64,000 bases of DNA from Schmidtea polychroa (Eukaryota), in NCBI GenBank assembly GCA_044892525.1, contig CM097887.1, positions 101,162,397 through 101,226,396 of the forward strand. Direction: 5' to 3'. Under the pieces are notes generated by a model, which was not told the origin of the DNA, made no database searches, and worked only from the letters and a program-made list of their open reading frames with translations. Below are positions 10,341-55,899 of the stretch, piece after piece; within the stretch, counting starts at the first letter, position 1, and every line of letters begins with the position of its first letter. A program made the translations under genes and the position numbers.

Positions 10341-10856
10341 TATTTTCGCGATTAAAACTTAGTTGTTTTCATGGAGTAAAATACTAGTTGTTTTCCTTTG
10401 TAAATTAGTCGGATTTAAAGCAAAATTTTTGGTTTCATTAGGAATTGGTATTTCTTCATGTTTATTATCCGGTTTTATTCAACTTTCACTTAATTTAATA
10501 TTTCAGTTTAATTTTCTATCAGGCTTTATGCTCTATTTTCTTTAAAGTTATAAATATACTCATTGATTATAGTAAATAACTGTAAATTTTGATTATTTTT
10601 ATTTATGTTATGTATATTTTTATCTATATATTTCCTTATTTTGTTTTAAAAAAATGCAACAAAAAATATAATAATTTTATATACCAAAAAATAGTTTATT
10701 TCCCTAAAATTTAATTACTCGATATTACTCATACTAGGAAGACATTTCTATCATCAAACTCTGTATTATTTGAAAATTTAGATTTTAAAACTCACTGATC
10801 ATATATAGGATTGTGTGATTACTATTGTTAGTTGTGATTATTAGGTGTGTTATAAG

Positions 10857-13800
10857 TGTTGGGCTAAAACGTGGAGTTTCGAAAACTGGAGCGAATAGAA
10901 AAGTAATCCTTGAAAAATAAACGAAATAAAATAAAAATATAAAGTACCATCAAATTCTCACTAATAAATCAAAAAGGAACAATAAAATATCAATAAGAGA
11001 ATAAGAATAAGTAAAACAAACTAAATAAAACCCAATAAACCCCTTGAGATTTAGAAATAAAGCGATTTAGGACCCAGCAGATGAAATAGAATAAAATAAG
11101 TAAAAAAGTGACAACAAATAAACGAGAAATTTAAGAAATAAATAAAAAATAAAACTATCTTTAAGTCTAATTAAAACAAAAAATTATATTACAATAAAGT
11201 AGCAATAAATCCACAGGAAAAATAGGAGGAAAATAATAAAAATAAGAAAATAAATAAAATAATAATAAGAAATAAGTTAAGTCATTAAAATCTAATATAT
11301 TATAATAAAAAACATAAAAATAATAATAAATAGTAAAAATACAAACAAGTCGTGTCCTGATTGGACGAAAAATAATATATAAGGAACGGAAAATATCTGT
11401 AGAGTACCACTTTTAAAAAATATTCTACAGGTAAACTTTGGTTCGTTATGACCACTTTTAAAAAATATTCTACAGACTTGACAGATTTCGGAACCTTTAA
11501 TTATCCTACAGCGAACTAGTTCAGAGATTACCAAACCAAACCGAGGAAGGAATATATAGAGGCCAAACCACAAATCCATTCGGGAAAAATTTTAAATTCA
11601 ACCGATTTAACTTCAGTTTTCGAAACTCAAGTTGCCTTTCTTCATGGTACCGGCGACTGTACCATCTGAGAACTCCCAGTGTGATGTGGACGAGTTGGAA
11701 TTGTACTGCAGTAGAGGACACCACCGTGGAAAGGTTGGTATGCCTAAGAAATCACGAACATGCTGAAAGGAGAATGTGATATGTGTAGGGTATGATATTT
11801 GTCATATTAGAGATCCACCAAGGAGACGAGGAGGTTTCGGTTAGGTAGGAGGAGCAACATCATACTCGGAGATCCAAATGATATGGTCGCCGGGTAAATT
11901 TTCTTTATGCATTTTTCTATCATTCAGTTTGATTATGGTATTGTTGATTTGGTTGAATGGAAACGAGTTGATTGGTCCCTCTTGACGGTGCAAGGAGGCG
12001 GCAGCAATGAATGCCTTCTTGGGTGTGTCGTGAGGGGTGAAGAAACTCAGTAGGTGGAACATCCAGTTGATAAGTGAAAGTTCCTTCATCAAGCGCGATC
12101 GTCTATAGAGCGTACCATCGGTTCATTTAGTCAAATCGAGATTTCCAGTAGTTGTAGAGATGATTTGAATTCCGAATGCAGGCAATTCAGAGCGAGATAG
12201 GCAGTGACGTTCGTACAGATTCGATAATAATCCACATAGCTAGGAGAAAAATTTTTTTCGTGATATTCAGCCGGTCGATCGACGTAGTTAGGAAAGAGCA
12301 GTGTTGACCATAGATTGCAAGTAAATCCAACGATTTTTCGGTGACGCACTGCGTTCGCAAGGTCCTGTCTGATTTGTGCCGTCATGATGTTAGCGGTTAC
12401 ATCCATTGTCGATGTACTCTTACGATTTGATTGTCGTCCGTGAGTCGCCATTGCCAGTGATAAAAAATCTCTCGCTGACAGGGAAGTAAACATCTTGCAG
12501 TGAAATTATCAAAATTTTTACTTCGAGCTCGCAGGCAATAGTCGCCAACGATAACAAAATCAGTTGATTTACATTAGCCAGCGTAGAGTTAGTCGACAGG
12601 AGATATCTGATAATGTCCTAGAGAAAGAGATAACGTGTCGGTTTTTCTGGGGAAATGTCAAATGGATAAGCTGATAGTCATTGATCTGAATAAATATCGT
12701 AAAGGGAAATTAGATGATAATGTTGAGCTTACCCAATAATCTACGAAGTTGTCGCCCACTCAGATTGATTAATCTGATTTTCCGATTCATCTACGACTGC
12801 TTATTTGAGGAATCTATTACGCAACCACTATTATTCCGACTTGAGTATGCACATACACACGCACCACCGTCGAATCTACATAGGGCAGTGTAAAAGTAAA
12901 TACACAATTTTTGGTGATGTAATAGCGGCATGATGATGTGAATTTTTCTAGAACGGTGAGATAATAAGATGGAGTAAAGGAATGGATTTCCCCTACACAA
13001 CTCGATATATAATAATTTATCATAACAGCATAAACCATCATTCGCGGTGATAGCCTACATACAGTTACAGATGCCACCAGGAGTAATGACACACCTACAC
13101 ATTCAGTCATAATGCATAATCACAAGTAAACGTTTTCCATGACGACGATTTCGACGCGTTATTGGAATTAATTAGATGTAGATTTAGAGCTGAATTTTTG
13201 ACTGATTACCTGATCAATTCCATAATTTTGAACGAGATAAAAACATAAATAATCTATTCCGTCGCCGTGAATTATTTCTCTGTAATTTTAGGTACGCCTA
13301 CATCGACGGATTGCCATAATGATATCGGCAAATTTTTAAATAAAAATATACTAAGGGGAACAAGGTTGAAGGGAATAAAGTAAAAGACGAGTTTTACCTG
13401 GGAATGGCCCATCCGAAAGTAAACCCAAAGGGCGAGGTTTATGTAGAGAGAATTTTTGGTGTACGAAATCCCCGTTTCCTTTTCTTAATTTACACGAATC
13501 AGGTGAAGAGATTTGAATGTTTGCAACTGAATGACTACGAATAGAGATGGATGAAGAAGTGTGTGGGTCATCGTTGGGTGGTATGTTTGATAAACCTCCA
13601 AAACCATGCCCAAAAATTTGATTTTGTTTTTTGCCACTGATAGAGGTTTTTCCGAGTAAATCTAAACAATGATTGATTTTCTAGATGGCTACATCGTCCA
13701 ACAACGCCAAAGAACTTCGCCCGTGTTTTTCTTGTGCGGACAAGAACGCGGATATCGCCCAACTGCACTTATATATCGGGGCTCTCAAAAAGAGAATTGA

Positions 13801-14984
13801 TCTCTATGAAGGAACGTGGTTCTCCCCGCCACAAATGAAAGAGGAACGCAAGAAAATTCTCCGATTAGAGCATTGCAGGGACAGCCTGCTAGAGGAAAGC
13901 CGTTGCCAGCGGCTCACCATCAAAGCGCAATCAGAAGCCCTCCATAAGGTGTATACGGAGGCAGAACTGGCTAAGCGGGTGCGAGAATTTCCCGTTCTAG
14001 ATGGGACGAATGTTTTTCCCCTTCACCACCAGTCTTCTACATCTTCCAGTTCGCACTGCCAGGGGCACGGCTCACAACTGCCGCCCATTCCAGCCCCGGT
14101 ATTGTCCAGTCACCAGCCAAAGACAGGTGGACCTACCGATCCCATCGTAGCTCCAATCTTGGTAGCACAAATCGGTACCACGAACACCGAAAACCCCCCG
14201 ACTACCCGCAAACGGAAACGGCCAACTCGAGCCGAGAAGAACCAAAAACGCCGAGATGCGATGACAGCACTCGAGACGTCCTTATCGGCGGCGAAATCAA
14301 AAATCCAAGAGATAACGTCCTCCCATTCAATCCCCTCAAAGGAAGTCTTCCGCATTGTTCCAGCTGAGGGCATCAAATACATTGTAGATAGCCGATTACC
14401 GGTCGACATAGATGAGATACTGGCCGATGGGGATAACTTTGTTTAATGTGATGTACAATTGAGCTTGATTTCCTCTTCATTGAGTTGTAAATTATCTTGT
14501 GAATTTTGCTAAGGTTATATCTTTTGACTGCTGTTGATCTGTTGGTGGTAATGATATTTTTATCGTTTCAGGGTCAATAAAATTTTCTGTTTGATTTCAG
14601 TTTTGTCGAGCTTTCATATATTTGTTTGTGCAATTAGGGTAGATGAGATAATGCTGCGGAATGAAGGTAATTAGAGTTGAAAGTCGTTCCTTTGGACCAG
14701 GATCAGACCGAGTGACACGCATGTATGTGGGTAAGTCCTTCTAAGGCACCGTAGGACCCGAACCGAGAAAGGGTTAGGAGTAGTCCTAAGGCAGGGGCTC
14801 ACCTGCTAACCTTTTCCGACCCGTGTGAGCAGCACCAACATGGAACATCACCATGGGCTCATATGTGGGAATATGCAATCAATCATTTGGAGTATGTGTA
14901 GAGAATGTATAACGGAGCCATGATGCTTGATAGGTGTGATGGAAAGGCATGTATAATTTTTTTTCTTCTCCACATACGCCAACA
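10857..14984 (+). repeat. 5' LTR (4128 bp)
   Basis: Starts TGTTGG, ends CCAACA; matches 36992-41132 at offset 26135, then 26148. Confidence 0.97.
13685..14446 (+). CDS. LTR-encoded 253-aa protein of unknown function (basic NLS-like TRKRKRPTRAEKNQKRR)
   Basis: Intact in both LTRs, ttttctag immediately before the ATG, higher GC than surrounding LTR sequence. Confidence 0.7.
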   Translation: MATSSNNAKELRPCFSCADKNADIAQLHLYIGALKKRIDLYEGTWFSPPQMKEERKKILRLEHCRDSLLEESRCQRLTIKAQSEALHKVYTEAELAKRVREFPVLDGTNVFPLHHQSSTSSSSHCQGHGSQLPPIPAPVLSSHQPKTGGPTDPIVAPILVAQIGTTNTENPPTTRKRKRPTRAEKNQKRRDAMTALETSLSAAKSKIQEITSSHSIPSKEVFRIVPAEGIKYIVDSRLPVDIDEILADGDNFV

Positions 14985-14991
14985 TGATTTT

Positions 14992-15009
14992 TGGGGGCTC
15001 AGCCGGGAT
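14992..15009 (+). promoter_or_regulatory. Primer binding site, tRNA-Pro type
   Basis: TGGGGGCTCAGCCGGGAT matches the classical tRNA-Pro PBS TGGGGGCTCGTCCGGGAT at 16/18, starting 7 nt after the 5' LTR. Confidence 0.85.
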
Positions 15010-15444
15010 TGTATATTGATTTGTTTGATTGTCTAATTTTGTGTTATGATGTGTTAGATTAACAATTTAATTAATTATGATAAAAATGGAATCGGGGCTG
15101 AAACGAATTATAGTGCAATAAAATGATACGAACTGTCTGAGTTTGAAATGGAGCATGTGGTGAATGAAACGAACCTAAATGAGTTGGAATGAATGTGATG
15201 AAGTATGATGAGAAAAGTAAACGGGAATTGGTTATTGTGATTAATTTTAACTGGTTAAAATAAAAAGGGGGACGAAAGAAAGTAAGTGATTAAAGCAAAA
15301 AGATGAAAGGGGAATTTCAAAGATCGAATAAAATACAAAAGTTAAAACACTAACGCATAAAAGTCAACGAATATTAATACAAACATAATAATATTATTTT
15401 TAATACCAGCAGGAACAAAATAATAACAACACATTCATTTAGAT

Positions 15445-15924
15445 ATGTCAGAAGCTAGACAACATCTACAACAGCTAAGCCGGTTCGTCGAAATAGAAAA
15501 TGATTCAATAAAAACATTAAGGGAAAAACTGAAACAAATAGAACTGCTAGAACAACAAAGCCACAACGCACCGCTGATATCCAAACAAAATTTTCTAACC
15601 GACAGATTAGGATCAACAAATACCGATACCGACTTGTCTATTCATTACCAATGGTTTCAGCAACGTCTCGACGACCCCGCTCTGAACATCGAATATGTGA
15701 GGATACGCGAACAAGTCAAAACTCTGTCTCAGCGGATACGAACATCAATAGTAGAGAAAGCAGCGGCCTTGAGAACCTGTAACATTTGCAGGATGCGACC
15801 TGTCAAAATTCTAATTCTACCTTGTGGGCACCTTAGCCATTGTGACGAATGCGCCGCCAGTTTAATCCGTTGCTCTATGTGCACATGCGTAATAAAAGAG
15901 AAGCACACAATCTACTTCAGTTAG
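15445..15924 (+). CDS. Coiled-coil plus C-terminal IAP-type RING-HC E3 ligase (no BIR)
   Basis: CNIC-x11-CGH-x2-CDEC-x6-CSMC ending KEKHTIYFS*, the spacing and aromatic C-terminus typical of cIAP/XIAP RINGs. Confidence 0.85.
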   Translation: MSEARQHLQQLSRFVEIENDSIKTLREKLKQIELLEQQSHNAPLISKQNFLTDRLGSTNTDTDLSIHYQWFQQRLDDPALNIEYVRIREQVKTLSQRIRTSIVEKAAALRTCNICRMRPVKILILPCGHLSHCDECAASLIRCSMCTCVIKEKHTIYFS

Positions 15925-16507
15925 GTACGCGATCGTCGCTCGGTGAAGGAAATTGGATGATTAACAATTAGATTAAACATTTTGATATTTTTGTTCCGAA
16001 TTAATTCGGTAATGTTTTGTAATGATAGCATATATTATCTGTAATGTGGAGTAAATAACTAATAAATCCTTTTTGTGTATTCATTTCATTATACGAAGTT
16101 ATAAATTGATTTGTGTTATTATAATTTTCACCATGAAGAAAGGGCATTTTAAAAATTTAAATTGATTTTTTAAAGTGGAACTAGTCCCATCATAGTGTTA
16201 AAGGGGGAGTAAACCGAGCCACCTTCGGGAGGTACGATATTGGAACCATTTGGGAAGGGACAACCGATCACCCAGAGTAAGAGATGTAAGGCGAGGTACC
16301 ATCGCGAATATTGAAAAGTTTCTGCGGTATGGCTGATCACCATACCAATGTAGAAATGGATCAATGCGATCGTTTTGCGTTTTGAGCAAGGGGGGAAAGG
16401 GGAAACCTTCCAAAGCGGTACAGATTAAGTCGACAAATAAAAGTAAAAATAGGAAGATGACAGTATAGAATAAAGACAGAAAAGGAACGGAAGCATGCAG
16501 AGTTTAG

Positions 16508-16860
16508 AGACATTAAGGCCGAGCTGTTGAAAAGTCCAGCCGGTCAGGGAAATTGAAACTGAGCTGTGAAAAGTCCAGCCAGTCGGAGACATTAAGGCCG
16601 AGCTGTTGAAAAGTCCAGCCGGTCAGGGAAATTGAAACTGAGCTGTGAAAAGTCCAGCCAGCCGGATATTAAGATCGAGTTGTTGAATAGTCCAACCGGT
16701 CAGGAGAAGAAGATTGAGCTGTTGAATAGTGCCAGCCAGTCGTAAGGCCGAGCTGTCGAGAAGTCCAGCCGGTCAGGAAAAATTAAAACTGAGCTGTGAA
16801 AAGTCCAGCCAGTTCGGAGATGAAGAAGATTGAGCTGTTGAAAAGTGCCAGCCAGTCGTA
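16508..16860 (+). repeat. Tandem array of nine 34-41-bp units (dimeric 79-bp period) in the leader
   Basis: Core gagctgt(t)gaaaagtccagcc(a/g)gtc at about 16520, 16561, 16600, 16640, 16677, 16716, 16750, 16791 and 16832. Confidence 0.92.
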
Positions 16861-18083
16861 AAGGCCTAAAGTAATAGTGAGATAGCATTCAAGCTACAAG
16901 TTGATAACATTTAAATTACTAGTGAGATGGAATATTAAAGCTAGCTAGAAGCAAATTGAGTTTGAAATATGGTATTTGAATTTAGAAAGGATTAAACGAG
17001 CTCGTAAAAGATGATAGTAAAATTCTTTGAGTAAAGAAGGAGAAACGGAAAAGGAAAATGAATTAGGAATAATAGAAACAAAGAATAAGTATGAATAGAT
17101 GACGAACCAAGGAGGAAATAATTAATTAATTGAAGGGGATCCCAGATAGGTAGATAAAGTTCTACAGAATTTTTTGTTTAAACCGGTTAAAAGAATTTTG
17201 TTTGGTTCCGGAGTAGAACCGAGTAAAAGGAAACAGAGACGAAAGAGTAAGTAAAATAGCGGAACCGCGTAAAAGGATTAAGGAAAATATGGGGAGTAAT
17301 AAGCAGTAACTGACAACGACCTATCGATATTATAAATGCTAACTATAGATAATTTATACGACTATATAGATAATTGTTACTACCCCAAATAGATAATTTA
17401 AAATCGACGAAAAATATGGGTTGATGGGTAATTATATTCCGCGAAGAAGCGTATGAGGGGAAATGAAGAGAAGTATAACAGAGGCCCTAAAACGGTGTCT
17501 GTGCTTGAATGTGGCAAAAAGGAATGATTGATTCGTGTAAGCAAAGGCAACACGATATCATATTTTCATTGTAGACATCAGTCCAACCAAGTCAATTCAG
17601 AACCAGCTCAAACGGAATCCAGAGAATATACAAACAACCCAGGAAAAGCAATTCAGAACCCGCACAAAGGAAAACAATATCAGAACCGAACTCGACCAAT
17701 TCCGCAGACGCTAACCGTAGAAAAACCCAAGTGAAAAGACAGAAAAGAGTAAAAAGAAAATCACGGATAAACCCAACCTTAGATCTTCAAGTAAGCCAGG
17801 AGACGTATTATTTTCAGGAGACGAATTAGATCAACTCAAAAGAGGACGATCATTTAGGCAGCAGAGAGGAATATCACAAGGAGCAAAAAGACCCCACAAA
17901 ACACCGATATACGATCAAGAAAACCCCACAGCCGGACATACGCCCAGTCGATCTAGAAGTAGAGAAAGTCTATCCGATATAACAAACAACCTAACCGGGT
18001 CAACAGAAGAATTATCCGTCCATAGTTTAGCTACATCACTAGAAAATTTAAAAGAAATAATAGCATTTCAAGAACCAATCAAG

Positions 18084-18986
18084 ATGAATGTAGCAAAAAC
18101 CGACGAATATAAAGAAAAATTTAGAGGCGAACCGTTCAACGGGAATGCGAACAAGTTGGCAACGTTCATAACCAATTTTGAAGTCTATATCGATGTGTGT
18201 GGATGGACGTCCGAAGCAATTAGTAAACGAATGCCTCTGTTTTTGTGCGATAGCGCACTCGAAGTGTATCTAGAAGCAAAAGAAAGAAATACGAAATTAG
18301 ACAATTGGGAAAACATCAAAACAATTTTGAGAAAAACATTCGGAGCCAGCAAACCGATAAATCAAGCGTTAGGTGAACTGGCAAGTAGAAAACAAAGGGC
18401 AAACGAGTCAATTACGTTATACGCAAGTGAATTGCGAAGATTGGCAAAGAAGGCCATGAACGGAAACTTGCCGGAGGAAAACTTAATTGGTTACTTCATA
18501 GAAGGACTGTGCCGAGAAGAGGTAAGGGCCTCGGTGGGATGTCAAATGTGTAAAACACTAGAAGAAGCTATAGATTGGGCCACAAGATGCGAACTACACC
18601 TCCCGGCACAAATGAATGTCATGCAAGAGGAGGGAAGAATCGCAACAGCAACGGTGAAAACGGAAAATGGAGATAACAATAATCATGAACCCAAGATGAA
18701 TCAGTTTATACCAGGAGCTCATCAAATCTTCAAACCACCACAAGGACGATCAAACGGGAATAACAGTGAACGCAACAACTCGAACAATGGGAACAACTTT
18801 AATAATCGACGAAATATGAACGATAACAAACAATGCCGAACATGCGGTAAACCAGGACATTGGGATAGAGATTGTTACCGAAACGCAAATTGCAATAGGT
18901 GTGGACGACGAGGACACACGGAAAATATATGCCAATCGAGAGGATGTTTTAACTGCGGTCAACCAGGTCATATCTCAAGAGACTGT
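18084..18986 (+). other. Gag region: capsid-like domain and three CCHC zinc knuckles
   Basis: FNGNANKLATFITNFEVY...MPLFLCDSALEVY gag-like segment; knuckles at 18834-18986. Confidence 0.92.
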
Positions 18987-21900
18987 CGAGAAAGGAGCCA
19001 ACAACAACGACCACCACAGCGAAATAATAACTATGCACCAAATCCGCAACGACAAAGTAATCCTAGTGAGGGAAAGCAAATGAATGTGATGCAAGAAATT
19101 TCACAAATGAAGCAGATGATGCAACAAATGATGAGACCGAGACAAGAGCAAGTACCACAACAAACCCAGAATATACGCATGATGAGAAGCACCGAGAATC
19201 TTAACAATTATGAAGTGCAACAACATGCACAAGAATGGCAAAGACTACAAGCTGAAGAAGAGAGGATAAAAAGAGAGCGAATTCAGCAGCGACAAGAACA
19301 ACCACTACGAATAAATATGATGAGGATGGTAAAGGAGATAAAGGAGCAATATTGTTACAACTATGGTAAAAATCCAAGAGTTGTACCTACGAGCGAACCA
19401 GAGAAACCGAAAGAAACAATTACAGCAGCAAAGAAGGAAAATTCAACAACACCGCTAAAAGGAAATCAGAGAATTCAGAAAATATTTTGGAAAAAGATAA
19501 AAGATAAAATCGAAAGAGAAAATGAGAAAACAAAAACAGAAGCAGAAGCAGAGAATAACGAAAATGAAAAACAGATTAATCATCTAAATCATGATATGAT
19601 ACGAGAATTAGACTCAGAAGAGCTAACGTTATTCGAGAACAAAAAGTTAAAGAAAGTACCAAGAATGAGAAATTTACGAATTAATATGATGAGGACAACA
19701 AAGAAGGTGTTGTCAACAGATGACGATGAGGATTATGTGAGTAGCCTTGGTGGAGAAATGTTACAGTTAAATGAAAATATCGACCAACTAAGAGAGAAGA
19801 TCGGAACAGAGGAAGAGGAGAGTGAAAGCGACGTAACAAGTGAAAGCGAAGACGAGAATATCGAAATGAAATTGAGAAAAGAAAGAGAAGAAGCGATAAA
19901 ACAAGTAAAGGAAATACTTCCAGTGGTGGTAAGAAACCAGGAATTCATTGACATCATACCATACAGACGCTTCATACAAAAGATAATGAAACTAGAAAGA
20001 AACGGAAAAGATCTAATACCAAACGAGGAAAAAGCGATAATAAAGAAGTATATGGAAAAAATGAAACAAGCGGAGACAACACGCTATGTAATAAAAATCG
20101 GAACGAGTAAAGGACTCGAGAGAATATGGATAAAAAGCACAGTCACAGACGAGCTTTTTGATTGGATAAGAGAACATTTGGGCAGCTCGAAAAAGAAAGA
20201 GTATTTATATCAATACCAAGGAGAACAAATTAAGCCAGACATGCACCTAATAGATGCATTGATCTGGCCAGGAGAAACTCAAATATTGAAATTGTATAAA
20301 GAGAAGCAACCAGCAAATATTCACGAATGGGCTAAAGACGCCAAGGCCGAGTATGACTTTAACATCAAGCTGAAGCTGGAACAAATAAAACAATGCACCT
20401 TGCGACGAAATCTAGATAAACTAATCAAACAAATTCAAGAACAAGTCGAAGATAACTGGGATTTACTCATAGCAAGACGAACTGCAGACATGCATGAACT
20501 AATGAGCCGATTACGAGATACAGAATTGCTCAGGATGAGCGATTGGAGAACCATAAATTTGATCCACAAATACGGAAGAGTAAAAGAAACGCAACCGCAG
20601 AAATTAGAAATAACCATATGGCTACCAAACGAGGAGAAACGACGAATAAAGATGAGTAATCAGAGTACGGTGGATGACTTAGTAACCAAGATAAACCAAG
20701 AGATAACGGAAAAAGTACGAAGCGAGAGTAGCGACAGGATGATAGATGATGTAGTCATGATGTACGATAAAATAATATTACGGGCCGAAGATGACACCTC
20801 GCTAAGCGAAATGGGAATATGGGATAATCATCAAATCATCAGAATATTGCCCATGGACGAATTCCGAACAAGAGATGTAACATACCAGAAAGAAATACGA
20901 GACAGGATGAAAACGCTATATCAAAAATCAGTAGAGATAATTGAAATTCATCAACAGTGGCTAAAAGAAAAAGAGCTTCAAGGAAAAATAAAGAAACTAA
21001 GTGTTAGATCCTGCAGACGAACCCCATGGGAAAGGATGTGGAATGCGGAAAACAAAGAATGGGAAATCAGGAAAGGGATTTTCGTGGAAACAGACATTGG
21101 TGAGATAGAAAGCGAATCAGAAGAAGAGGAAGATGAACCTCCAAAATACGAAGAGGACGAAATAGAATCGACATCGAACGACGAAAGCGAAACGGATGTT
21201 ACATCAGAAAGTGAAACGGAAACCAGACATATTCATGCGATGAGAAAGAAAGAACGCGAATATGCCGATATGGACAGCGAAGAAGCGATGGAAGCTCGAG
21301 AACGAGAAGAGAAGGAAAGATATAAACAATTAGGTGATATCTTAGCAACGGGAGCAAAAAATCAAAAACGACAAGTAATAGCATTGGCTAACATCATCCT
21401 AAAGACATCAGAGAATATCCACAATCTAAGAGAAATGGCGAAAGCGATTGAGGAATACAGACAATATAACGAATGGTACCCAGAACAGCTAGAACAAATT
21501 ATTAGGAAATGGAGAAACCAAGAATGGGCACAAGATACCCAGGAAAGGTATCGTATCCGAGTCAAGTATCCCGACAAAAGCATTGAGGATACAGAAGTAC
21601 ATCCAACAACAAAGATCAGAGAGTTAAAAAAGAAATTAGCGTACGAAACTCCATTTCACCTACAACTATTCGGAAAATCGTTGGATGATAATGCAGATGT
21701 CGGAATAACACCCATGAGATTGGGGGAGATCAATGTAGTGACAATGGCAGAAACATTGGGAAAACCGATTAAAAGGAAGAGCAAATCCAGTAAACCTACG
21801 AAAGGTAGCTTGAGTACACCAAGCCCTAACAAAGTGGCGAGTAAATCGAATGAAACCGAGGAAATCGAGGAAATTATATTAGAAGACAGCGATGAAGGAG

Positions 21901-24900
21901 CTGGAGAAAGATCACCAATTCTGGTAAGATGGCCGACAGGAGCCGAAATATGGACAACAAGCCAACCGTCAACTAGCTATCAGCAGCCAAATAAGCTGAG
22001 TATCGAGGAGATTATCGATAATACAACAGAAACCGAAACCGACGAACAATTCCAACGACAGAAAGGACCAACGAAAGCAACACCAGAAGGTCAAACGGAC
22101 AAAATAATAGACGAATGGAACGAATGGCTGAGAAACAACGATAGCTCATTACCAAGAACGGATAACGAGAGAAACCCGAATTATGAAAATACAAGGGAAG
22201 CCGGAACAATGATGGAAAAACGGGCAAAAGGGAGACCCAAGAAGCAAGGAGAAAAACCGGAATTTAAAACCAGAGAACAGTTGAAACAAGAACAAGGACA
22301 AGTCAGACTAGAAAAACTGGATAAAATAGTGTGGGACTTAAAAGAAGCTCAACCAACAATCGAGAAAGGTGAAAAATGGATACGGGAGCTAGTAAAAGAT
22401 ATGTTAATAATAACAAACCCGCAATTGAGACGGTTATGGCAACGAAAAGTAGCAAGCGTAGACGCCAGACAACTATGGAATACAATATCCGGAATAATTC
22501 CGAAATTAATCAAAGAGAAGACAAAAACCACTAAAACCGATTGGGAAGAGACAAGAAGAGTAATTGAACAATTAACTTTAAACGCAAACGACGACGAACA
22601 TCATTTAGTAGTATTAACGTATCTAATGTACAATTTGATGGGATTAGCAGCAAGGAAAATACCTAACAAACAATTCGCAAATCATGTAGAAATGACCGTT
22701 ACAATCATTGAAAATACAATCGAACCACATATTATCCGCGCCGGTGGGTGGAAAAGACTCATACAAGCGCCACGAAAAAACGAGCAAGAGAGATCAATGC
22801 AAATTCGGTTGAAGAAATTACTAAACGAGCTAGAATGGGAATTGCCATTGAAAGACCCAGCCAGCAGAAAAGCGTCGATTAATTCACTAATGATGACCAT
22901 GATGATATGGATGCTCTGCACCAGTGGAGCCGCGGGATTTACTATTTACGACTGTGACAATTCGATAATAGGAGAAAGATACTCCCTGAGAGATATAGAG
23001 GAATGTAGACAGGCGTCTCCGAATAAATTAGATATAGTAAAAAAGAAAGTCTCCTATCACGTATACCAAGAATCAGATTTCATTAGAACGCAAGCTAGAG
23101 AATGCGTAGTATCGAAGAAAGTGTTGGCATATTACTGTGGACAATACTCATATTCAACCCTCATATTACCTGGATTAGATAAAGAAATAGTACCTATACA
23201 ACGGGAAGACTGTAAAGAGCTTTTTGGAACCGGAGCGATGAGAATCAGGGATGGAGTAACAATACACGGACAAAGCGGAATGATCAAGACGGAAAGTATC
23301 TATGTAGCCGGACGAGTAAAATCAACTGATGGATCATGTAACGGAGGCACATATACGATCAGAGGAGAGGTGATATCAGGAGTAGTAGTAATTGAGTCCT
23401 ACACAGTGGAGTTGAAGGAATACGAAGCACAATTCGACGCAAACAACTATCAAATGAAAACCAACCCAGCATGCAGAGCTACGGAAAACGTGTGTAGAAC
23501 GGGGATTTCGACTATAATATATGAAGCTAACACCCAAAAATGCCGACTCCAATTGTTAAAAAGTGCTCTATTCAATGAAGTAAAAGGAGAAATTTACGAA
23601 AACGAGGATGACGATGAAGAGAATGGAAACGTAAGGATGCGAAATGGGAAACCAGTCCCACCATCCCCCAAAGAAAAGAGACTCACAACACAAAAAACAC
23701 CAACGGCATTAATTACAGATGACCCAGATATCGGTATGAGATTTATCAGAGAGAAAGAGACCACCAAATGTGACAGCATAGTATATCGGACGAATTACGC
23801 AGGTATCTACATGTCAAGGCAAGTAATAGACCGAGCAGTGGGAAAGGTAGCAACAGAGGACGTAAAATTGTACCTGTACGCCAATAACAAAATGGATTTT
23901 TTATTTCATCGAGGACAAACGACAATGCAAAAAGTGTATTACGATCTTATACAAAATGACTGTTCATTGAATAAAGAGATACTAAAAACAAAATTAGCCA
24001 TCGCAATAACACACCCAGATAACACAATGCCATCACTCCCGTTACCGGATGGACACTTTGGTAGAATGGTGGGAGAGGTAATGTATACATATGCATGTAC
24101 CAAGACATTTGCGCGACTGCCAAGAAAGCCCACAATTCCACCAGGGAAATGCGCAAACGAGTTGGAAATTAGTTACAAAGGGCGAAACAGATTCGTTCAA
24201 CCCGTCACTAGGATAATGAACCCAATTGGATTTTATCCAAACACCTTTAACTGTTCAAATGCATACGGACCGTTATATGAAAAACCCGATGGGAAATGGA
24301 TAATGTTACCAGTAAAAACCGAAGTACAAGAGCCTAAAAAGTTTGGATTAATAGAACTCGCAACAGAACAAGATTTCAAACCAATTGATGTGTCAAAGGC
24401 TGGTATGTACTCACCAGAGGATTTAGAAACGGCACGATTAAACGTATTATTCCCAGCAAGACGGGAATCCATTCTATCGAATATGGTTACCATAACTGGG
24501 GGAACGAATTTCCAGTCAGGCCCCAATTACGAACTATTATTGTCACCTGATCATTTTCAACAAGCCACGTCAAACATGATGAAAGCAATGTGGGGAAGAT
24601 TTCTAGTATTCGGTCAAATGATGGCAGGAATATTGGGAATCATTCTTATTATCCAGATTGTTAGAGTAATATTGACTCAAATGTTGGCGTGTTTTGATAT
24701 CTATAAGAGAGAAAAGAAAGTAAATTGGAAGTTGATAGTAGGTTTTCTACCATTTTTGGCAAAAACAATGGTGTTGCACGGTCATTCTAAAGACATACAT
24801 AGAATAAAACGATTGATCAAAATACTGACAAAAATAAAAGGAACTGACGAGGAAGTCGGTAGACGATTTCGGAAAACCATGTATGATGAAGCAACAAGAG

Positions 24901-27900
24901 CGCAATTAAAGAAGAACAAACCAAAATTCTTAGACAGATTTAGGAATCGATCAAACAGCAGCGATAGTGATGATGACGACAATGGGAATGACAAATATCC
25001 ATATCCAAGTAGAAACCCGAATGAAAAGCCAATAGAAACAGCGCCATATTGGGAGAAAGAAAAAACAAATACCTGGATAGCCAACGGAAGTTATATACCA
25101 CCAGATATCGTTGGACAACAAACAGCTTTGACCATGACCCAAAATATGTATCCACAGTTACCAAGTCAACCAGGGATGAACTATATGCCGACCCGAAGAA
25201 CGAAAAGTGTAGACCAAGCGGATGACGTAAGAACGATAGCAGTAATGAGTTCACCAGGAGGTGCGGCAGTAACAGTCATGATCCAAATCAACGGGAAAGA
25301 GACAAGCGCCATGATAGATACCGGAGCAAACGTATCAGCAATAGCAATAAACCAAATACCCAGTAAATGTTGGAAAGATATCGAACAAACAACTATCCAT
25401 ATTATTGCATGCAGTAAAGAAACCGTAGACGTAGTAGGAAGATGGTGGACTACGTTACGATATCAGGATAACGAAATTGAAACGTATCTAGCGGTGATAC
25501 CCAAACTGAGTGAACCATGTATAATCGGAACGGATTTGATGCCGGAATTGTTTAAGGAAGTGGTAATCGATTTAACAACAATGTGTCTAAAAGACAAAAT
25601 GGGTAGAATATGCAAGATGAACGCAATAATTAGATGCCCGGAGAAAATAATTGTACCCGCAAAATCACAGATGATATGTCAAATAAAAGTGGATGCAGGA
25701 ATGGAAGGAGAAGTCATTTTTGAGCCAAGCAAATCATTCGAAAAACGACGAGAATTACCATTAGCAAGAGAAATAATAACAATGAATGAAGACGGGGAAA
25801 TACCAATTAACATCACAAATTTCGAGGAAGAAGACAAGATCATATATGAAAATGAAAGATTGGGTAGATTGACACCCATGATAGACATCGAATTACCAAA
25901 AATCACCAACGAAACAACGAAAGCTGACGAATTATGGATAATGGATAGCACCTTGCTAACGGAAAAAGAAAAGGAGAGACTTCAACAATTATTGATAGAA
26001 TATAAAGATATATTCGCAATTTCGGATTTAGATTTGGGAGCATGCGATGTTACATTACACGCAATACCATTAATAGACGAAACTCCAATCGCTCTACGTC
26101 CATACAAACTAGCAGAGAAGCAAAAAGAGATAGCCGAAGCAGAAGTACAAAAAATGCTAGATGCACAAGTGATCGAACCAAGTTGTTCGCCATGGCAATT
26201 TCCAGTAGTCATGGTGAAGAAAAAAGATGGTACTCAGAGATTCTGTATCGATTATCGGAAACTAAATGCAGTAACAAAAAGAGACACATACCCGTTACCA
26301 GACATCAATGAGATGTTACTTATGTTACAGGGGGCCGCATATTTTACATCTTTAGATCTGAAAAGTGGATATTGGCAGATCAAAGTCAAGGAGGAAGACA
26401 AAGAGAAAACAGCATTCACATTGGGCCGAGATCTATACCAATTCAGGAAAATGCCGTTCGGACTGACCAATGCCCCAGCATCATTTCAGAGATGTATGAA
26501 TTTTGTCACACACGGGATCAAGCAATGTATGGTATATATTGATGATTTATTAATATATTCAGCAACTTTCGAACAACATTTGGAAGACATTAGAAACGTG
26601 TTCATCCGATTACGACAATGGAAACTGAAACTTAAACCATCCAAATGTGATTGGGCAAAAGAAAAAGTTACGTTCTTAGGACACATAGTGTCAGCAAAAG
26701 GCAAAGAACCAGATCCAAGAAACATAGAAAAAATAAAAACATGTCCAGCACCAAAAACTGTCACCCAAGTTCAAGAATTTCTCGGATTATGCGGATATTA
26801 TCGTAAATTCATCAAAAACTATGCAGGTATTGCGAAACCAATACAGGAATTAGTGAAAAAGGATATTTCATTTATTTGGGGTGCAGAACAACAAAAAGCG
26901 TTTGAGACATTGCGAGATAAATTAATTGAAGCCCCAATACTAGTACATCCTGATTTCAAGAAACCGTTCTTATTAGCAACAGATGCAAGTGGATATGCAG
27001 CCGGAGCAATATTGGGACAACTCGACGAGGAAGGGAAAGAAAGAGTGATTGGATACTACAGTAGAACGTTTAAAAAGCATGAGAAAAACTATTCCGTAAC
27101 CGAGAGAGAAGCGTTAGCAATCATACAAGCGATTAAACACTTTCGATATTTGTTATGGGGACACGAAATATGTATCACCACGGATCATCAACCACTAGTA
27201 TGGCTTGGTCAACACAAAGAAGCCTCAAGTAGATTGATGCGATGGGCAATGCAGTTACAAGAATATTCGCCGTTCATAAAATTCAAAGCGGGAAGAGCGA
27301 ATGCCAATGCGGATTGTATGTCCAGATTTATCTTTCCAGATTTAGTAGATCACGAAATGCAACGAATATGTCTGATGGTAGCAGAAGATTTAGATTTTTG
27401 CCAATTACGAAAAGACCAACAAGAGGATACAGAGTTGAAGCAAATCATTGAATATGTGAAAACAGGGAAAGCAGAGGTATATGAGAAAGATCAAAAATTG
27501 AAGGAGCATATGGATAAACATCGACATCGATATATTATCGAGAAGGACTGGTTGTTGATAATGGATGGCGAGAAAAGACTGATGTGCATTCCCGAGAATA
27601 GACGTAAAGATCTACTAACACAATACCATGACGGAAGACTCGGAGGACATATGTCATCTAAAAAGACGTTGGCACGAATGAAACAAAAATACTTCTGGCC
27701 TACATTGACCGAGGATGTAACAGAATGGGTGAAAAATTGCATAACTTGCGCAACCAGAAAAAACACGGGAACGAAATGGAAGGCACCATTAAAGCCAATG
27801 CCAGTACCAGCGGAACCAATGACAATGATATCAATGGACGTAGTCGGTCCACTACCAGAATCAGATAGAGGGAATATATATATATTGGTAATCACGGATT

Positions 27901-30900
27901 ATTTGACAAAATTCCCCGAAGCATTCGCAATGGCAGATCAGAAAGCAAGAACAATCGCAAAAATACTAGTAGAGGAGATATGCTGTCGATATGGAACACC
28001 AAAACAGATACTAACTGATCAAGGGACAAATTTCATGAGCGAAATAATGAGCGAAGTCACCAATTACTTCAAGATTGCAAAATTAAGAACATCACCGTAC
28101 CATCCACAAACTAATGGTATGACAGAAAGATTCAATGGAACACTGATTCAAATGTTATCAAATTATGTCGATCGTCATCAACGAGACTGGGATGAATATA
28201 TAAAATTATGTCTAATGGCTTACAGAATGTCGATTCACGCGTCCACAAAGATGAGTCCGTTCAAGTTGATGTACGGCAGAGAATGCAATATGCCAATGGA
28301 TTTGGAGTATCAGCCACCAATATCACAGTATATGGAAATAGACGATTATGTAACCAAGTTCAAGGAAAGAATGCAGGAAATCTGGGAAACTGCAGGATTG
28401 AATATAAAATTTTATCAAGAAAGCTACAAAGAGTTACATGATAGAAAGAAAAACGTCAAACAGCATACGTTCCAAACGGGCGATTGGGTGATGATCGAAA
28501 CACCAGAATTAATTCCAGGAACCACCAAAAAATTACAACGAAACGGTAAAGGTCCGTATGAGATTCTATTCGTCGGAGAAACTAATGTAAGAGTACGATT
28601 AGTGAACAACCCTTTTACAAGACCAATATACGTAAATGTTGCACGATGTAAGCCAATTCCGAAAACCGCCACCAGTCAGCCAGAAGGACGTACATTAACG
28701 ACAAGATCACAAACGTATAGAATAAACATGTTACAGCAGATAAACGAACCAACAGGTAATCGATTAGGGTTACAACCATCAGAAGCCGAGAAAATCATAA
28801 AGGAAGTAAAAGTTAAAATGCCCGGATGGGCAGAAGACAGATTAGATTTTGAGATATTGGGAGGTCTGCTAACAATGATAGAAAACTATGCAAATCGAGA
28901 AAGAACACACCCATTACTTAGGGTAGTAAAAAGTCAATGGCCTATATTATTTACGATCACAGACCATTATGGAGATACACCGCTGCACAAACTTTTAAAG
29001 GTCGGGAATAATGAACAAATACTGGAAACGATCGAAGCATTTCGCGACTGTAACATTTCGACGGATCAAGAAAACAACCAAGGTTACACTCCATTAATGA
29101 TAGCAGCCAATCGGGATAAAGCTAAAGATATTATCATCGCATTACTCGAAACTGGGTCAAAGATAACCACACAAGATCACAACCAGAAAAATGCACTACA
29201 TCATGCAATCGAAGGGAAAAGTACGGAAGCCTTCATAATCTTAGTAGATCTATTATCATATGAGGATAATAGGGAGATAGGAAACATGTATGACGGGTTA
29301 TTAACTGCAATCAAAGAGAAATTAATAACAATTGCTGGATTACTAATTGCATGGAGGAACCCGATAAAAAACGATTATATGGTAGATATAAACGAAACAT
29401 TTACCAGAGGAGAAAACACCTTGATGAGAGAAGCGATGAGAGGACATCACCTATTCGAAATTCCAAATCAACTACTACAACGTGGCATAAAGTTCTCAAA
29501 TCACAAAGACGAACAACTAATCAGAAAACGAATTACCAACTTCGAAAAAGCTATATCTCAATTTACCGATAAAGTACAAGTAAAATTTTGGGAAACCGTG
29601 AGTGTTTTACATATGATGGAAACTATGAACAAAATTCGAGAAAACTACCTAAGTATTATTCAAGTTCTAACAGCAGAGGAACGCATTAACAATTCGAACA
29701 AGAAAAAGATAAAAATGAAGAAAGTAAAAGCAAGAGAGTCTGAGGAACAAGTCGATCAACCAATAACCGATATAGCAACAACAAGTAAACCAAAGACAAT
29801 AAACTCCGACCAAGAGATAGTAGTACGTAAGGCTAAAGAAGTATTCTTTGAAGAAATGCAAGATCTATCCGATGAAGCGATACTAGCAAAAATAACCAAA
29901 ACAGTACACACCTACGCAAGAGATCAGACCACAAATCTAGACATAGGAAAAATAAAAACATTTATACCACTAGCATTCACCTTACCAACAAAAGACTCAA
30001 GAACACCATTACAACAAGCCATTTTAGCAGCAAAAGAGAACAGAGCAATAACCATCATAAGAATCCTTAGAGACTTCGGAGAAAAATCTAATGCAAAAAA
30101 TGAACAAGGAGAAACAGCAATGATGTATGCAGCAATAACAAAGATACACCCGAAAACCTTACATATACTACATCAATCAGGTTCGAGACTTGACGAAATA
30201 TCAAACGAAGGAAATTCTACCATGGATTGGGCAACAATACAACCAAACTTGGAAATGATTAGATTCATTTGTAAAAATGCTATAAGAGCTGAGGTAGAAA
30301 ATATCTGTAAAAACACGTCACAATTCCAATGGAACACGATACGGATGAACTTAGAAGCCATGAAGTTATTGCTAACATGGAAAATACCACAAAGCAATAA
30401 ATATGCAATAAATATAAATGAGTTCTACGAAAACGGAGAAAATGCTATGGTTAAAAATACACTAACAAAAGGAGGAACTCCGAAAATCATAATGATCGTA
30501 TTGAACAGAGAGGACCTCAAATTCACGCAAAATCTAAACGAACAAAAGCGAATCGGAAAACATCGCCGTATACAATTGAGAGAACTGGTAAAAGAATGGA
30601 ATAGAAAGAGACATGTAGCAACAGGCAGAAAGGAGTTCGAATTCGAGGCAAAATTAGCAAGAAACAGAGTGCTAACGGCATACCGCAGATTGTTGAATGA
30701 TATAAATGTCGAGGACGACATTTTAAACGATAGCGGGGGAGATAAAGACGATAAAGACGACGATAATAATGAAAAAGGTCGAAACGGGAATAAAGAGAAA
30801 GAGAAATCAGAGGAGAATAATCAAGAAAATAACGACGCGAGTAAGAAAAAAGAGGAAAATAACCCGAGAAACCGAATAAAGCAAGAAGAAAAGACGAATA

Positions 30901-36991: not shown

Positions 36992-39900
36992 TGTTGGGCT
37001 AAAACGTGGAGTTTCGAAAACTGGAGCGAATAGAAAAGTAATCCTTGAAAAATAAACGAAATAAAATAAAAATATAAAGTACCATCAAATTCTCACTAAT
37101 AAATCAAAAAGGAACAATAAAATATCAATAAGAGAATAAGAATAAGTAAAACAAACTAAATAAAACCCAATAAACCCCTTGAGATTTAGAAATAAAGCGA
37201 TTTAGGACCCAGCAGATGAAATAGAATAAAATAAGTAAAAAAGTGACAACAAATAAACGAGAAATTTAAGAAATAAATAAAAAATAAAACTATCTTTAAG
37301 TCTAATTAAAACAAAAAATTATATTACAATAAAGTAGCAATAAATCCACAGGAAAAATAGGAGGAAAATAATAAAAATAAGAAAATAAATAAAATAATAA
37401 TAAGAAATAAGTTAAGTCATTAAAATCTAATATATTATAATAAAAAACATAAAAATAATAATAAATAGTAAAAATACAAACAAGTCGTGTCCTGATTGGA
37501 CGAAAAATAATATATAAGGAACGGAAAATATCTGTAGAGTACCACTTTTAAAAAATATTCTACAGGTAAACTTTGGTTCGTTATGACCACTTTTAAAAAA
37601 TATTCTACAGACTTGACAGATTTCGGAACCTTTAATTATCCTACAGCGAACTAGTTCAGAGATTACCAAACCAAACCGAGGAAGGAATATATAGAGGCCA
37701 AACCACAAATCCATTCGGGAAAAATTTTAAATTCAACCGATTTAACTTCAGTTTTCGAAACTCAAGTTGCCTTTCTTCATGGTACCGGCGACTGTACCAT
37801 CTGAGAACTCCCAGTGTGATGTGGACGAGTTGGAATTGTACTGCAGTAGAGGACACCACCGTGGAAAGGTTGGTATGCCTAAGAAATCACGAACATGCTG
37901 AAAGGAGAATGTGATATGTGTAGGGTATGATATTTGTCATATTAGAGATCCACCAAGGAGACGAGGAGGTTTCGGTTAGGTAGGAGGAGCAACATCATAC
38001 TCGGAGATCCAAATGATATGGTCGCCGGGTAAATTTTCTTTATGCATTTTTCTATCATTCAGTTTGATTATGGTATTGTTGATTTGGTTGAATGGAAACG
38101 AGTTGATTGGTCCCTCTTGACGGTGCAAGGAGGCGGCAGCAATGAATGCCTTCTTGGGTGTGTCGTGAGGGGTGAAGAAACTCAGTAGGTGGAACATCCA
38201 GTTGATAAGTGAAAGTTCCTTCATCAAGCGCGATCGTCTATAGAGCGTACCATCGGTTCATTTAGTCAAATCGAGATTTCCAGTAGTTGTAGAGATGATT
38301 TGAATTCCGAATGCAGGCAATTCAGAGCGAGATAGGCAGTGACGTTCGTACAGATTCGATAATAATCCACATAGCTAGGAGAAAAATTTTTTTCGTGATA
38401 TTCAGCCGGTCGATCGACGTAGTTAGGAAAGAGCAGTGTTGACCATAGATTGCAAGTAAATCCAACGATTTTTCGGTGACGCACTGCGTTCGCAAGGTCC
38501 TGTCTGATTTGTGCCGTCATGATGTTAGCGGTTACATCCATTGTCGATGTACTCTTACGATTTGATTGTCGTCCGTGAGTCGCCATTGCCAGTGATAAAA
38601 AATCTCTCGCTGACAGGGAAGTAAACATCTTGCAGTGAAATTATCAAAATTTTTACTTCGAGCTCGCAGGCAATAGTCGCCAACGATAACAAAATCAGTT
38701 GATTTACATTAGCCAGCGTAGAGTTAGTCGACAGGAGATATCTGATAATGTCCTAGAGAAAGAGATAACGTGTCGGTTTTTCTGGGGAAATGTCAAATGG
38801 ATAAGCTGATAGTCATTGATCTGAATAAATATCGTAAAGGGAAATTAGATGATAATGTTGAGCTTACCCAATAATCTACGAAGTTGTCGCCCACTCAGAT
38901 TGATTAATCTGATTTTCCGATTCATCTACGACTGCTTATTTGAGGAATCTATTACGCAACCACTATTATTCCGACTTGAGTATGCACATACACACGCACC
39001 ACCGTCGAATCTACATAGGGCAGTGTAAAAGTAAATACACAATTTTTGGTGATGTAATAGCGGCATGATGATGTGAATTTTTCTAGAACGGTGAGATAAT
39101 AAGATGGAGTAAAGGAATGGATTTCCCCTACACAACTCGATATATAATAATTTATCATAACAGCATAAACCATCATTCGCGGTGATAGCCTACATACAGT
39201 TACAGATGCCACCAGGAGTAATGACACACCTACACATTCAGTCATAATGCATAATCACAAGTAAACGTTTTCCATGACGACGATTTCGGAATTAATTAGA
39301 ATTAATTAATTGGAATTAATTAGATGTAGATTTAGAGCTGAATTTTCGACTGATTACCTGATCAATTCCATAATTTTGAACGAGATAAAAACATAAATAA
39401 TCTATTCCGTCGCCGTGAATTATTTCTCTGTAATTTTAGGTACGCCTACATCGACGGATTGCCATAATGATATCGGCAAATTTTTAAATAAAAATATACT
39501 AAGGGGAACAAGGTTGAAGGGAATAAAGTAAAAGACGAGTTTTACCTGGGAATGGCCCATCCGAAAGTAAACCCAAAGGGCGAGGTTTATGTAGAGAGAA
39601 TTTTTGGTGTACGAAATCCCCGTTTCCTTTTCTTAATTTACACGAATCAGGTGAAGAGATTTGAATGTTTGCAACTGAATGACTACGAATAGAGATGGAT
39701 GAAGAAGTGTGTGGGTCATCGTTGGGTGGTATGTTTGATAAACCTCCAAAACCATGCCCAAAAATTTGATTTTGTTTTTTGCCACTGATAGAGGTTTTTC
39801 CGAGTAAATCTAAACAATGATTGATTTTCTAGATGGCTACATCGTCCAACAACGCCAAAGAACTTCGCCCGTGTTTTTCTTGTGCGGACAAGAACGCGGA

Positions 39901-41132
39901 TATCGCCCAACTGCACTTATATATCGGGGCTCTCAAAAAGAGAATTGATCTCTATGAAGGAACGTGGTTCTCCCCGCCACAAATGAAAGAGGAACGCAAG
40001 AAAATTCTCCGATTAGAGCATTGCAGGGACAGCCTGCTAGAGGAAAGCCGTTGCCAGCGGCTCACCATCAAAGCGCAATCAGAAGCCCTCCATAAGGTGT
40101 ATACGGAGGCAGAACTGGCTAAGCGGGTGCGAGAATTTCCCGTTCTAGATGGGACGAATGTTTTTCCCCTTCACCACCAGTCTTCTACATCTTCCAGTTC
40201 GCACTGCCAGGGGCACGGCTCACAACTGCCGCCCATTCCAGCCCCGGTATTGTCCAGTCACCAGCCAAAGACAGGTGGACCTACCGATCCCATCGTAGCT
40301 CCAATCTTGGTAGCACAAATCGGTACCACGAACACCGAAAACCCCCCGACTACCCGCAAACGGAAACGGCCAACTCGAGCCGAGAAGAACCAAAAACGCC
40401 GAGATGCGATGACAGCACTCGAGACGTCCTTATCGGCGGCGAAATCAAAAATCCAAGAGATAACGTCCTCCCATTCAATCCCCTCAAAGGAAGTCTTCCG
40501 CATTGTTCCAGCTGAGGGCATCAAATACATTATAGATAGCCGATTACCGGTCGACATAGATGAGATACTGGCCGATGGGGATAACTTTGTTTAATGTGAT
40601 GTACAATTGAGCTTGATTTCCTCTTCATTGAGTTGTAAATTATCTTGTGAATTTTGCTAAGGTTATATCTTTTGACTGCTGTTGATCTGTTGGTGGTAAT
40701 GATATTTTTATCGTTTCAGGGTCAATAAAATTTTCTGTTTGATTTCAGTTTTGTCGAGCTTTCATATATTTGTTTGTGCAATTAGGGTAGATGAGATAAT
40801 GCTGCGGAATGAAGGTAATTAGAGTTGAAAGTCGTTCCTTTGGACCAGGATCAGACCGAGTGACACGCATGTATGTGGGTAAGTCCTTCTAAGGCACCGT
40901 AGGACCCGAACCGAGAAAGGGTTAGGAGTAGTCCTAAGGCAGGGGCTCACCTGCTAACCTTTTCCGACCCGTGTGAGCAGCACCAACATGGAACATCACC
41001 ATGGGCTCATATGTGGGAATATGCAATCAATCATTTGGAGTATGTGTAGAGAATGTATAACGGAGCCATGATGCTTGATAGGTGTGATGGAAAGGCATGT
41101 ATAATTTTTTTTCTTCTCCACATACGCCAACA
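36992..41132 (+). repeat. 3' LTR (4141 bp)
   Basis: TGTTGG...CCAACA; near-identical to the 5' LTR. Confidence 0.97.
39833..40594 (+). CDS. Second copy of the LTR-encoded 253-aa ORF
   Basis: Differs from 13685-14446 by one residue (YIVDS vs YIIDS). Confidence 0.7.
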   Translation: MATSSNNAKELRPCFSCADKNADIAQLHLYIGALKKRIDLYEGTWFSPPQMKEERKKILRLEHCRDSLLEESRCQRLTIKAQSEALHKVYTEAELAKRVREFPVLDGTNVFPLHHQSSTSSSSHCQGHGSQLPPIPAPVLSSHQPKTGGPTDPIVAPILVAQIGTTNTENPPTTRKRKRPTRAEKNQKRRDAMTALETSLSAAKSKIQEITSSHSIPSKEVFRIVPAEGIKYIIDSRLPVDIDEILADGDNFV

Positions 41133-41890
41133 TTAGAAATTTTGTGAGAACCCAGCAGTCTTCTTTAAAACTTGTTTTGGGACTGCTGGGATGCTTATGT
41201 GTGGTAAAAAAATAATACGCAACAGTAGAAAAATAAATATTAAATGAATGTGTAACATACAACGAAACTAACTTTACTTTTACAAAGTTTATTGAACAAT
41301 ACAAAATTAGAAAACCTTTTCTTAAACTAATTTACTTCTAAGTTGACCGGAAATTAATTGAGAATAGTTTTCTAATTCGTCTGAGGATCTGACAATTAAT
41401 TTTAATATTTTTTAGATTTCTTAATTTGTTTCTGTGATCTTCTGTTTAGTTCTTATATTTTTTTAAAATTTTCCATTCAATTTCTAAAATTTGCTTCTGT
41501 AATCTACTATTTAATTTCACAGATTAAATCTACTGTTTAATTTATTAAATTCGTTTCTGGTATTTTAGTTGTTAATTTGTCTATCGATTTTTTTAATTTT
41601 TGTAATTTTTCATTTACTTTAGTGATAATTCACACTAATGGTTTTTTAATTTTTTTAATAATTTTAACGTAAGGTTAACAAAATAGCAACACACTACAAA
41701 TTGTAGTTACAATTTCATATAAAATGATAATAATAAAAATAACTACACTCTATTATTTGAAAGTTCCAGATCATTTAGATTTTAAAACTCACTGATTATA
41801 TAGGATTGGAACGATAATCTTGTCCGATACAAAATAACATTTATTTAACCAATAAAGGCAACATGTAAATTAAAAATTATAAGCAAAGCA

Positions 41891-55487: not shown

Positions 55488-55899
55488 TATTCAATATAAT
55501 TTTATTGTTTTTATTATTTTATTATTATTTATTTATTAATAAAAAATTAATTTTTAAAAAATACGTGTTTATTGATTTTTAGTCCCAAATAAAGTTTATA
55601 TCGATTATATAAAACAAAATTTTCGATTGCATTTTTTTGAAAAAGGGTTTGATGTTTGTTGAATCGAAAAATTTGCTAAAAAACGATTGGAAATGATTTT
55701 AAAAAGCTTTGAATAAATGTGAAATGTCATAGAATATAATAAAATTCGAAAGTTTTCATTTTGATCAAAAGTGTTGAAAAGTACACTTAATAGTGTCAAA
55801 ACTAGTGTAATTAAACATTAGTTATTATATAATAAAAGCAGTTTATTCTTTTTTCTTAAAATTATAATTAAAATAATATGTTATTTTTAAAATTTTATC

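Follow-up and report, generated by a model that had tools for sequence, protein, structure and literature searches.

The element and its related families

The stretch of DNA analysed here (the window, 64,000 nucleotides of the Schmidtea polychroa genome) contains a long element in which a single plus-strand ORF of 4,623 aa (ORF1) sits between two LTRs. Its main features are as follows.

10857..14985, +, 5′ LTR of about 4.1 kb, 99.6% identical to the 3′ LTR over 4,142 columns
18084..31955, +, ORF1, 4,623 aa, Gag-CCHC-(modules)-Bcl-2-like-Env-PR-RT-RH-IN-ankyrin
22305..22763, +, Bcl-2-like domain from a five-family profile, whose best 60 of 119 PDB matches are all Bcl-2/Bcl-xL (E about 1e-3)
22878..22937, +, probable Env signal peptide, a hydrophobic run preceding the env start, which would anchor the leader
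22938..24707, +, Env, class III (Monjiviricetes_fusion), PF24664, E 8e-72
36992..41133, +, 3′ LTR, 99.6% identical to the 5′ LTR

The Pfam matches in ORF1 are arranged in the order Gag, CCHC knuckles, a weak Bcl-2 match, Monjiviricetes fusion protein, PR, RT, RNase H, integrase and ankyrins, and a RING ORF and a RING-TRAF/MATH ORF are carried by the same element separately from ORF1 (Pfam). The RING ORF, of C3HC4 type, is placed upstream at 15445-15924 and the RING-TRAF/MATH ORF downstream at 32522-33961; MATH is a separate gene in the family of the window and lies inside ORF1 in a related family (E). No BIR was found by Pfam among the 9 window proteins scanned, and the dUTPase family search returned no copies of the element.

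The element is multi-copy: the 68 of 1,598 candidates scored for the whole region of interest were all 95-100% identical, and the 150 of 639 scored for one part of it (module 2, below) were all 93-100% identical. The ends of the window copy (10847-10856 and 41134-41143) showed no match as a target-site duplication. A primer-binding-like TGGGGGCTC run, presumably resembling tRNA-Pro, is present a few bases past the 5′ LTR (window 14986-15010). Both LTRs hold a 253-aa stop-to-stop frame (13685-14446 and 39833-40594) for which Pfam is empty, a cluster of direct repeats of 40-79 nt lies in the leader (16507-16861), and three more plus-strand frames of 208-354 aa are found before the 3′ LTR (34156-36760), with no credible Pfam match. 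Elsewhere in the window an RT with a weak GIY-YIG match (Penelope-like) occupies 1-2250, part of which recurs in inverted orientation some 54 kb further on (55868-57315), and a 243-bp satellite is repeated in 18 copies of 98-100% at 59513-63943.

Four further families (B-E, the window family being A) were found in the genome, with env 35-57% identical to that of the window; the env, Bcl-2 and MATH searches used for this scored top candidates only and may miss further families. A hydrophobic run ahead of the env start was seen by eye in 5/5 families, and the hydropathy cut-off for a signal peptide was passed in B and D and missed in A and E. Short Bcl-2-like frames (150-180 aa) are also numerous and multi-copy outside long ORFs (L049 and L050 type loci).

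Three modules of predicted helical and ubiquitin-like parts

The preliminary description of this DNA had proposed three modules between Gag and Env, each made of a helical segment followed by a ubiquitin-like domain. All the motifs that it quoted were recovered in the ORF 18084-31955, namely YVIKI (20085), RIWIKS (20121) and YQGEQIKPD (20214) for module 1, LEITI (20604), RIKMSNQ (20643) and DDTSLSEMGI (20790) for module 2, and YRIRVKYPD (21549), TEVHPTT (21591) and LFGKSLDD (21666) for module 3, and the helical segments ahead of the three domains measure 63, 61 and 73 aa. The position is also right, except that Env is not directly next, since the Bcl-2-like domain intervenes.

19884..20072, +, module 1 helical segment, aa 601-663, with an orthologue in family E
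20079..20300, +, module 1 probable ubiquitin-like domain, aa 666-739; 14/1000 shuffles as high, HHalign E 2e-5 for the whole module
20403..20585, +, module 2 helical segment, aa 774-834; 53/1000 shuffles as high, orthologue 11/1000
20598..20855, +, module 2 probable ubiquitin-like domain with a 10-12-aa insert, aa 839-924; 10/1000 shuffles as high, orthologue 0/1000
21306..21524, +, module 3 four-helix bundle, aa 1075-1147, helices from AlphaFold2
21543..21749, +, module 3 ubiquitin-like beta-grasp domain, aa 1154-1222, modelled fold

The region contains one unit in three diverged copies, and this unit is predicted to be composed of a four-helix bundle and a ubiquitin-like domain (UBL). The unit was present in 5/5 families examined (3 copies in A, 2 in B, 2 in C, 1 in D and 3 in E), always upstream of the Bcl-2-like domain, whose GGW follows at a distance of 203-330 aa. 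Family E has a MATH domain between the second and third modules, and its third module (E3) is orthologous to module 3 with 45% identity; the tree of the modules resolved orthologue pairs only.

A profile built from families B, C and D alone gave 30.5 bits for module 3 (0/979 reported shuffles as high) and 12.3 bits for module 2 (1/998), and it missed module 1 (0.7 bits, 478/997), which was reached at 11.2 bits (0/998) once modules 2 and 3 joined the profile. With orthologues left out, the shuffles scoring as high per 1000 numbered 14, 10 and 0 for the ubiquitin-like halves of modules 1, 2 and 3 and 383, 53 and 0 for the helical halves, by which the homology of the module 1 helical half to the others is at shuffle level. 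That module 3, and perhaps 2, alone is ubiquitin-like, with module 1 as an alpha/beta domain unrelated to it and similar by pattern, would agree with this value, with the miss by the B-D profile and with the lack of any PDB match for the module 1 orthologue searched alone. We judge this improbable, as module 1 shares the helix-turn-strand spacing and the hydrophobic core columns of the others when all 11 modules are aligned and gave 76% in HHalign, with E 2e-5 over 102 columns.

The alignment of the 11 modules consists of helices, a short K-aromatic turn and five strands with a helix, and its core columns 5, 26, 30 and 43 are hydrophobic in 11/11 modules. When its profile was compared with PDB, the best 60 of 383 matches were all ubiquitin, ISG15 or ubiquilin UBL, with single-domain E down to 8.5e-8, and the identity of the modules to ubiquitin is 11-23%. 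The six A and E domains alone reached 6.3 bits against host ubiquitin (10/1000 shuffles) and all 11 reached 20.7 bits; by these sequence comparisons the ubiquitin link is carried mostly by families B-D. Individual searches gave little: 7 PDB matches for the module 2 orthologue alone, none of them a UBL, 0 PDB matches for the window region alone, sub-cut-off beta-grasp matches only for that region in Pfam, DCX2 below the cut-off for module 1 (Pfam, E 0.07) and a weak Rad60/NFATC2IP-type Pfam match in D1 only (E 0.014). Word-seeded homologue searches over three length ranges found nothing.

The preliminary description had named a predicted structure without a beta-grasp as the result that would speak against it. 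The fold was modelled for module 3 only, and there the AlphaFold2 model contains the beta-grasp, preceded by a bundle with helices at 2-15, 21-34, 38-54 and 60-75 (pLDDT 84-94); single-sequence AlphaFold of the whole region (647 aa) was uninformative, with pLDDT 38. Module 2 fell in the Rad60-SLD and ubiquitin clusters of the Atlas (0.90). Support for the ubiquitin-like fold is strong for module 3, moderate for module 2 and weaker for module 1, the latter two being judged by profile and Atlas. Fold likeness extends to the integral SUMO/ubiquitin-like domains of Rad60 SLD2, TINCR, OASL, BAG1 and ISG15, and no UBL sub-family can be chosen because their scores are tied. None of the top 50 of this fold search, a listing filled by UBL matches, matched the helical half, and coronavirus nsp3 Ubl1/Ubl2 were not among the fold matches listed. 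These nsp3 domains are non-conjugatable UBLs with acidic neighbours in the polyprotein of an unrelated virus, and we know of no paired helix bundle in them.

For the helical half no credible match was obtained in Pfam or PDB, and the best Atlas match (0.82) was to hypothetical proteins with low recognition. When 1.84 billion representatives were searched with a profile, the 3 matches obtained were all repeat proteins summing weak stretches and were rejected; this blank is no proof of uniqueness, since the library returned no Burro module (see below) either. The helical half may resemble the TFIIS N-terminal domain (TND), and likewise PAH and harmonin-homology domains. HHalign against 5 host TNDs, a shallow template, scored 9.4, inside the shuffled range of up to 12.7, and the PF08711 search picked up no long-ORF element copies. 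As a separate observation, a TFIIS-N-terminal-domain gene is present in over a dozen near-identical copies (L066-L076), mostly clustered on contig C2.

Selection was estimated as pN/pS over the window and 38 copies (39 sequences), and over 10 sequences for env and RT. The values were 0.20 and 0.08 for helix 1 and UBL 1, 0.08 and 0.07 for helix 2 and UBL 2, and 0.12 and 0.11 for helix 3 and UBL 3, beside 0.07 for the Bcl-2-like domain, 0.19 and 0.16 for the linkers, 0.07 for env and 0.03 for RT. All three modules were stop-free in 38/38 copies checked. The modules are maintained under purifying selection, and it is the entire interval that is constrained, not the folded parts specifically.

Domain ends, acidic motif and predicted products

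Gly-Gly was absent from the last 25 residues of 11/11 modules, which bears out the earlier remark that the ends look non-conjugatable; the C-terminal Gly-Gly of conjugatable modifiers (ubiquitin, SUMO, ISG15) is found in none of the 11. Leu occupies the Leu8 column in 0/11 modules and Ile the Ile44 column in 1/11, the register being unsure for A1, A2 and E2. From established ubiquitin biology, the lack of Gly-Gly together with the lack of the Leu8/Ile44 patch speaks against conjugation, cleavage by DUBs and canonical binding to proteasome receptors, and the loss of this patch weakens the analogy to proteasome shuttles which had been drawn at the outset.

19677..19691, +, candidate protease site RINMM, aa 532, putative cleavage, predicted start of the module 1+2 product
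19830..19850, +, acidic DVTSESE copy 1, absent from family E
21195..21215, +, acidic DVTSESE copy 2, exact repeat of copy 1
21228..21242, +, candidate protease site HIHAM, aa 1049, putative cleavage, predicted start of the module 3-Bcl-2-signal leader

The RINMM-kind motif occurs 9 times in ORF1 against a shuffle mean of 1.0 and maximum of 6 (2,000 shuffles), a count that is inflated because the motif was drawn from the ORF1 sequence itself after the fact. It is placed at the PR start, the RH/IN junction and the IN end and also flanks the modules, and the sites at aa 532 and aa 1049 are kept in 9/9 copies checked. Among the relatives it was counted 7 times in family E, at matching places (with RICMM at the position matching HIHAM), 0 times in B and once in D. 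The recurrence of the acidic motif, which had been noticed before, was found again as DVTSESE at 19830 and 21195. ORF1 has just three exact 7-mer repeats, of which this is one (any such repeat arose in 18/500 local shuffles); it is present in 6/6 copies checked, with different Ser codons at its two places. Its absence from sister family E places it outside the repeated unit. It may resemble CK2 or caspase sites.

The protease of the element probably cuts near aa 532 and 1049 and so would release two accessory proteins. The first of these (aa ~536-1052) would be soluble and carry modules 1 and 2, and in family E also the MATH domain. The second, or leader (aa ~1053-1618), would carry module 3, a linker, the Bcl-2-like domain and the Env signal peptide, which, if it is truly one, would tail-anchor the leader in the membrane.

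Known elements and possible roles

Burro1/GYPSM1 and Burro2-4 are planarian giant Ty3/gypsy elements of over 30 kb with LTRs, and their giant ORF is described, in the parts of the source covered, as having Gag, a Ubi2/SUMO-like motif, a BCL-2-like domain, in-frame env before PR-RT-RH-IN, and ankyrin (PMC6431247). The window element is like them in its length of >30 kb, its multi-kb LTRs and its single ORF with Gag-Bcl-2-Env-PR-RT-RH-IN-ankyrin. The motif published there, located between MATH and BCL-2, corresponds to module E3, the orthologue of module 3; the text covered names one motif, whereas the window element has three, each behind a helical bundle, and the published figure may mark more (PMC6431247). 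The earlier statement that no such domain was known in LTR retroelement polyproteins therefore falls, one motif having been published already (PMC6431247). Strict Burro1 has MATH_TRAF_C inside ORF1, as family E has MATH in frame, whereas in the window element MATH belongs to the downstream RING-TRAF ORF. The parts covered of a 2019 review describe much of the Burro polyprotein as unannotated and suggest meddling with apoptosis and ubiquitination, and the RING/BIR cargo of Burro1 is reported, second-hand and in the part covered, to protect stem cells from apoptosis (PMC13465017).

Smed_errantivirus_1-6 are GAG-ENV-POL errantiviruses of HSV/gB type whose env is placed in frame after gag and before pol; compared by eye, the window env is nearest to Smed_errantivirus_5, and families B, C and D resemble _2, _1 and _3 (PMC13524379, in the parts covered). 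In the main text and 7 supplements of that source 'ubiquitin' occurs 0 times, and the Gag-Env interval is unannotated in the parts covered. No description of a repeated helix-bundle and UBL unit was found among the literature listings covered; modules 1-2 may be annotated in other publications or in figures. What is new is the repeated two-domain unit and, likely, its partition into two products, one UBL of Burro elements being known. The finding refines a known system and opens no new class; Burro elements are abundant in planarians, and the gain lies in the boundaries of a two-domain unit and in two predicted mature products, each of which can be expressed and tested singly.

Judged from the surrounding cargo, we tentatively prefer, at somewhat below even confidence, to regard the modules as non-conjugatable docking adaptors in a host-manipulation programme, because their neighbours are the RING and RING-TRAF ORFs, the Bcl-2-like domain and, in the family E product, MATH. 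Such adaptors would likely dock host factors of the ubiquitin or SUMO system, possibly by a face distinct from the Ile44 patch in the manner of SUMO-like domains, and may dampen cell death or innate signalling together with the RING, TRAF/MATH, Bcl-2-like and ankyrin cargo. It is a more doubtful proposal that Burro-type elements in general own a module of bundle and non-conjugatable UBL, in 1-3 copies, whose last copy forms an anchored UBL-Bcl-2 effector rewiring host ubiquitin and death signalling; if true, every round of envelope synthesis would give one tethered effector.

A role in particle assembly, in which the tethered leader replaces a matrix protein and connects the envelope with capsid or nucleocapsid, is rather unlikely in our view. 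Ty3/gypsy Gag is without a matrix protein, and the foamy-virus Env leader peptide and nsp3 Ubl1 with its acidic neighbour are analogies for it. The location between nucleocapsid and Env signal peptide in 5/5 families, the acidic flanks (net charge -13 and -21), a constraint similar to that of env and the loss of the host-type Ile44 patch agree with this role; however, 1-3 copies with MATH interleaved in family E fit modular cargo better than a lattice protein, and the product to be anchored also contains the Bcl-2-like domain. Quite improbable is a proteasome/p97 shuttle or degron, in which the bundle holds substrate or ubiquitin and the UBL docks Rpn1/Rpn10/Rpn13 as in Rad23, Dsk2 and Ddi1. 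The two-part architecture and the UBLs of ubiquilin, Dsk2 and Rad23 among the sequence and fold matches suit it, but these matches are tied with SUMO, ISG15 and Rad60 SLD2, so that shuttles are not singled out, no UBA-type match was obtained for the bundle in Pfam or PDB, and the Leu8 and Ile44 counts given above oppose it. It is barely credible that the modules serve as signals for processing by host deubiquitinases, in the way of the ubiquitin insertions of the BVDV polyprotein: these inserts are among the viral fold matches and BEL/Pao-like elements of the same genome place Gly-Gly-ended ubiquitin before Gag, but Gly-Gly is found in 0/11 modules and their identity to ubiquitin is low (11-23%).

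The BEL/Pao-like ORFs, which were recognised by eye, are multi-copy gag-protease ORFs having 1-2 near-canonical, Gly-Gly-ended ubiquitin units just before Gag, and these units are likely cleavable fusions. The search that gave the three loci below also returned L044, L046 and L047.

L042:3674-7858, BEL/Pao-like ORF with ubiquitin units, by eye
L043:1967-6013, BEL/Pao-like ORF with ubiquitin units, by eye
L045:2550-6008, BEL/Pao-like ORF with ubiquitin units, by eye
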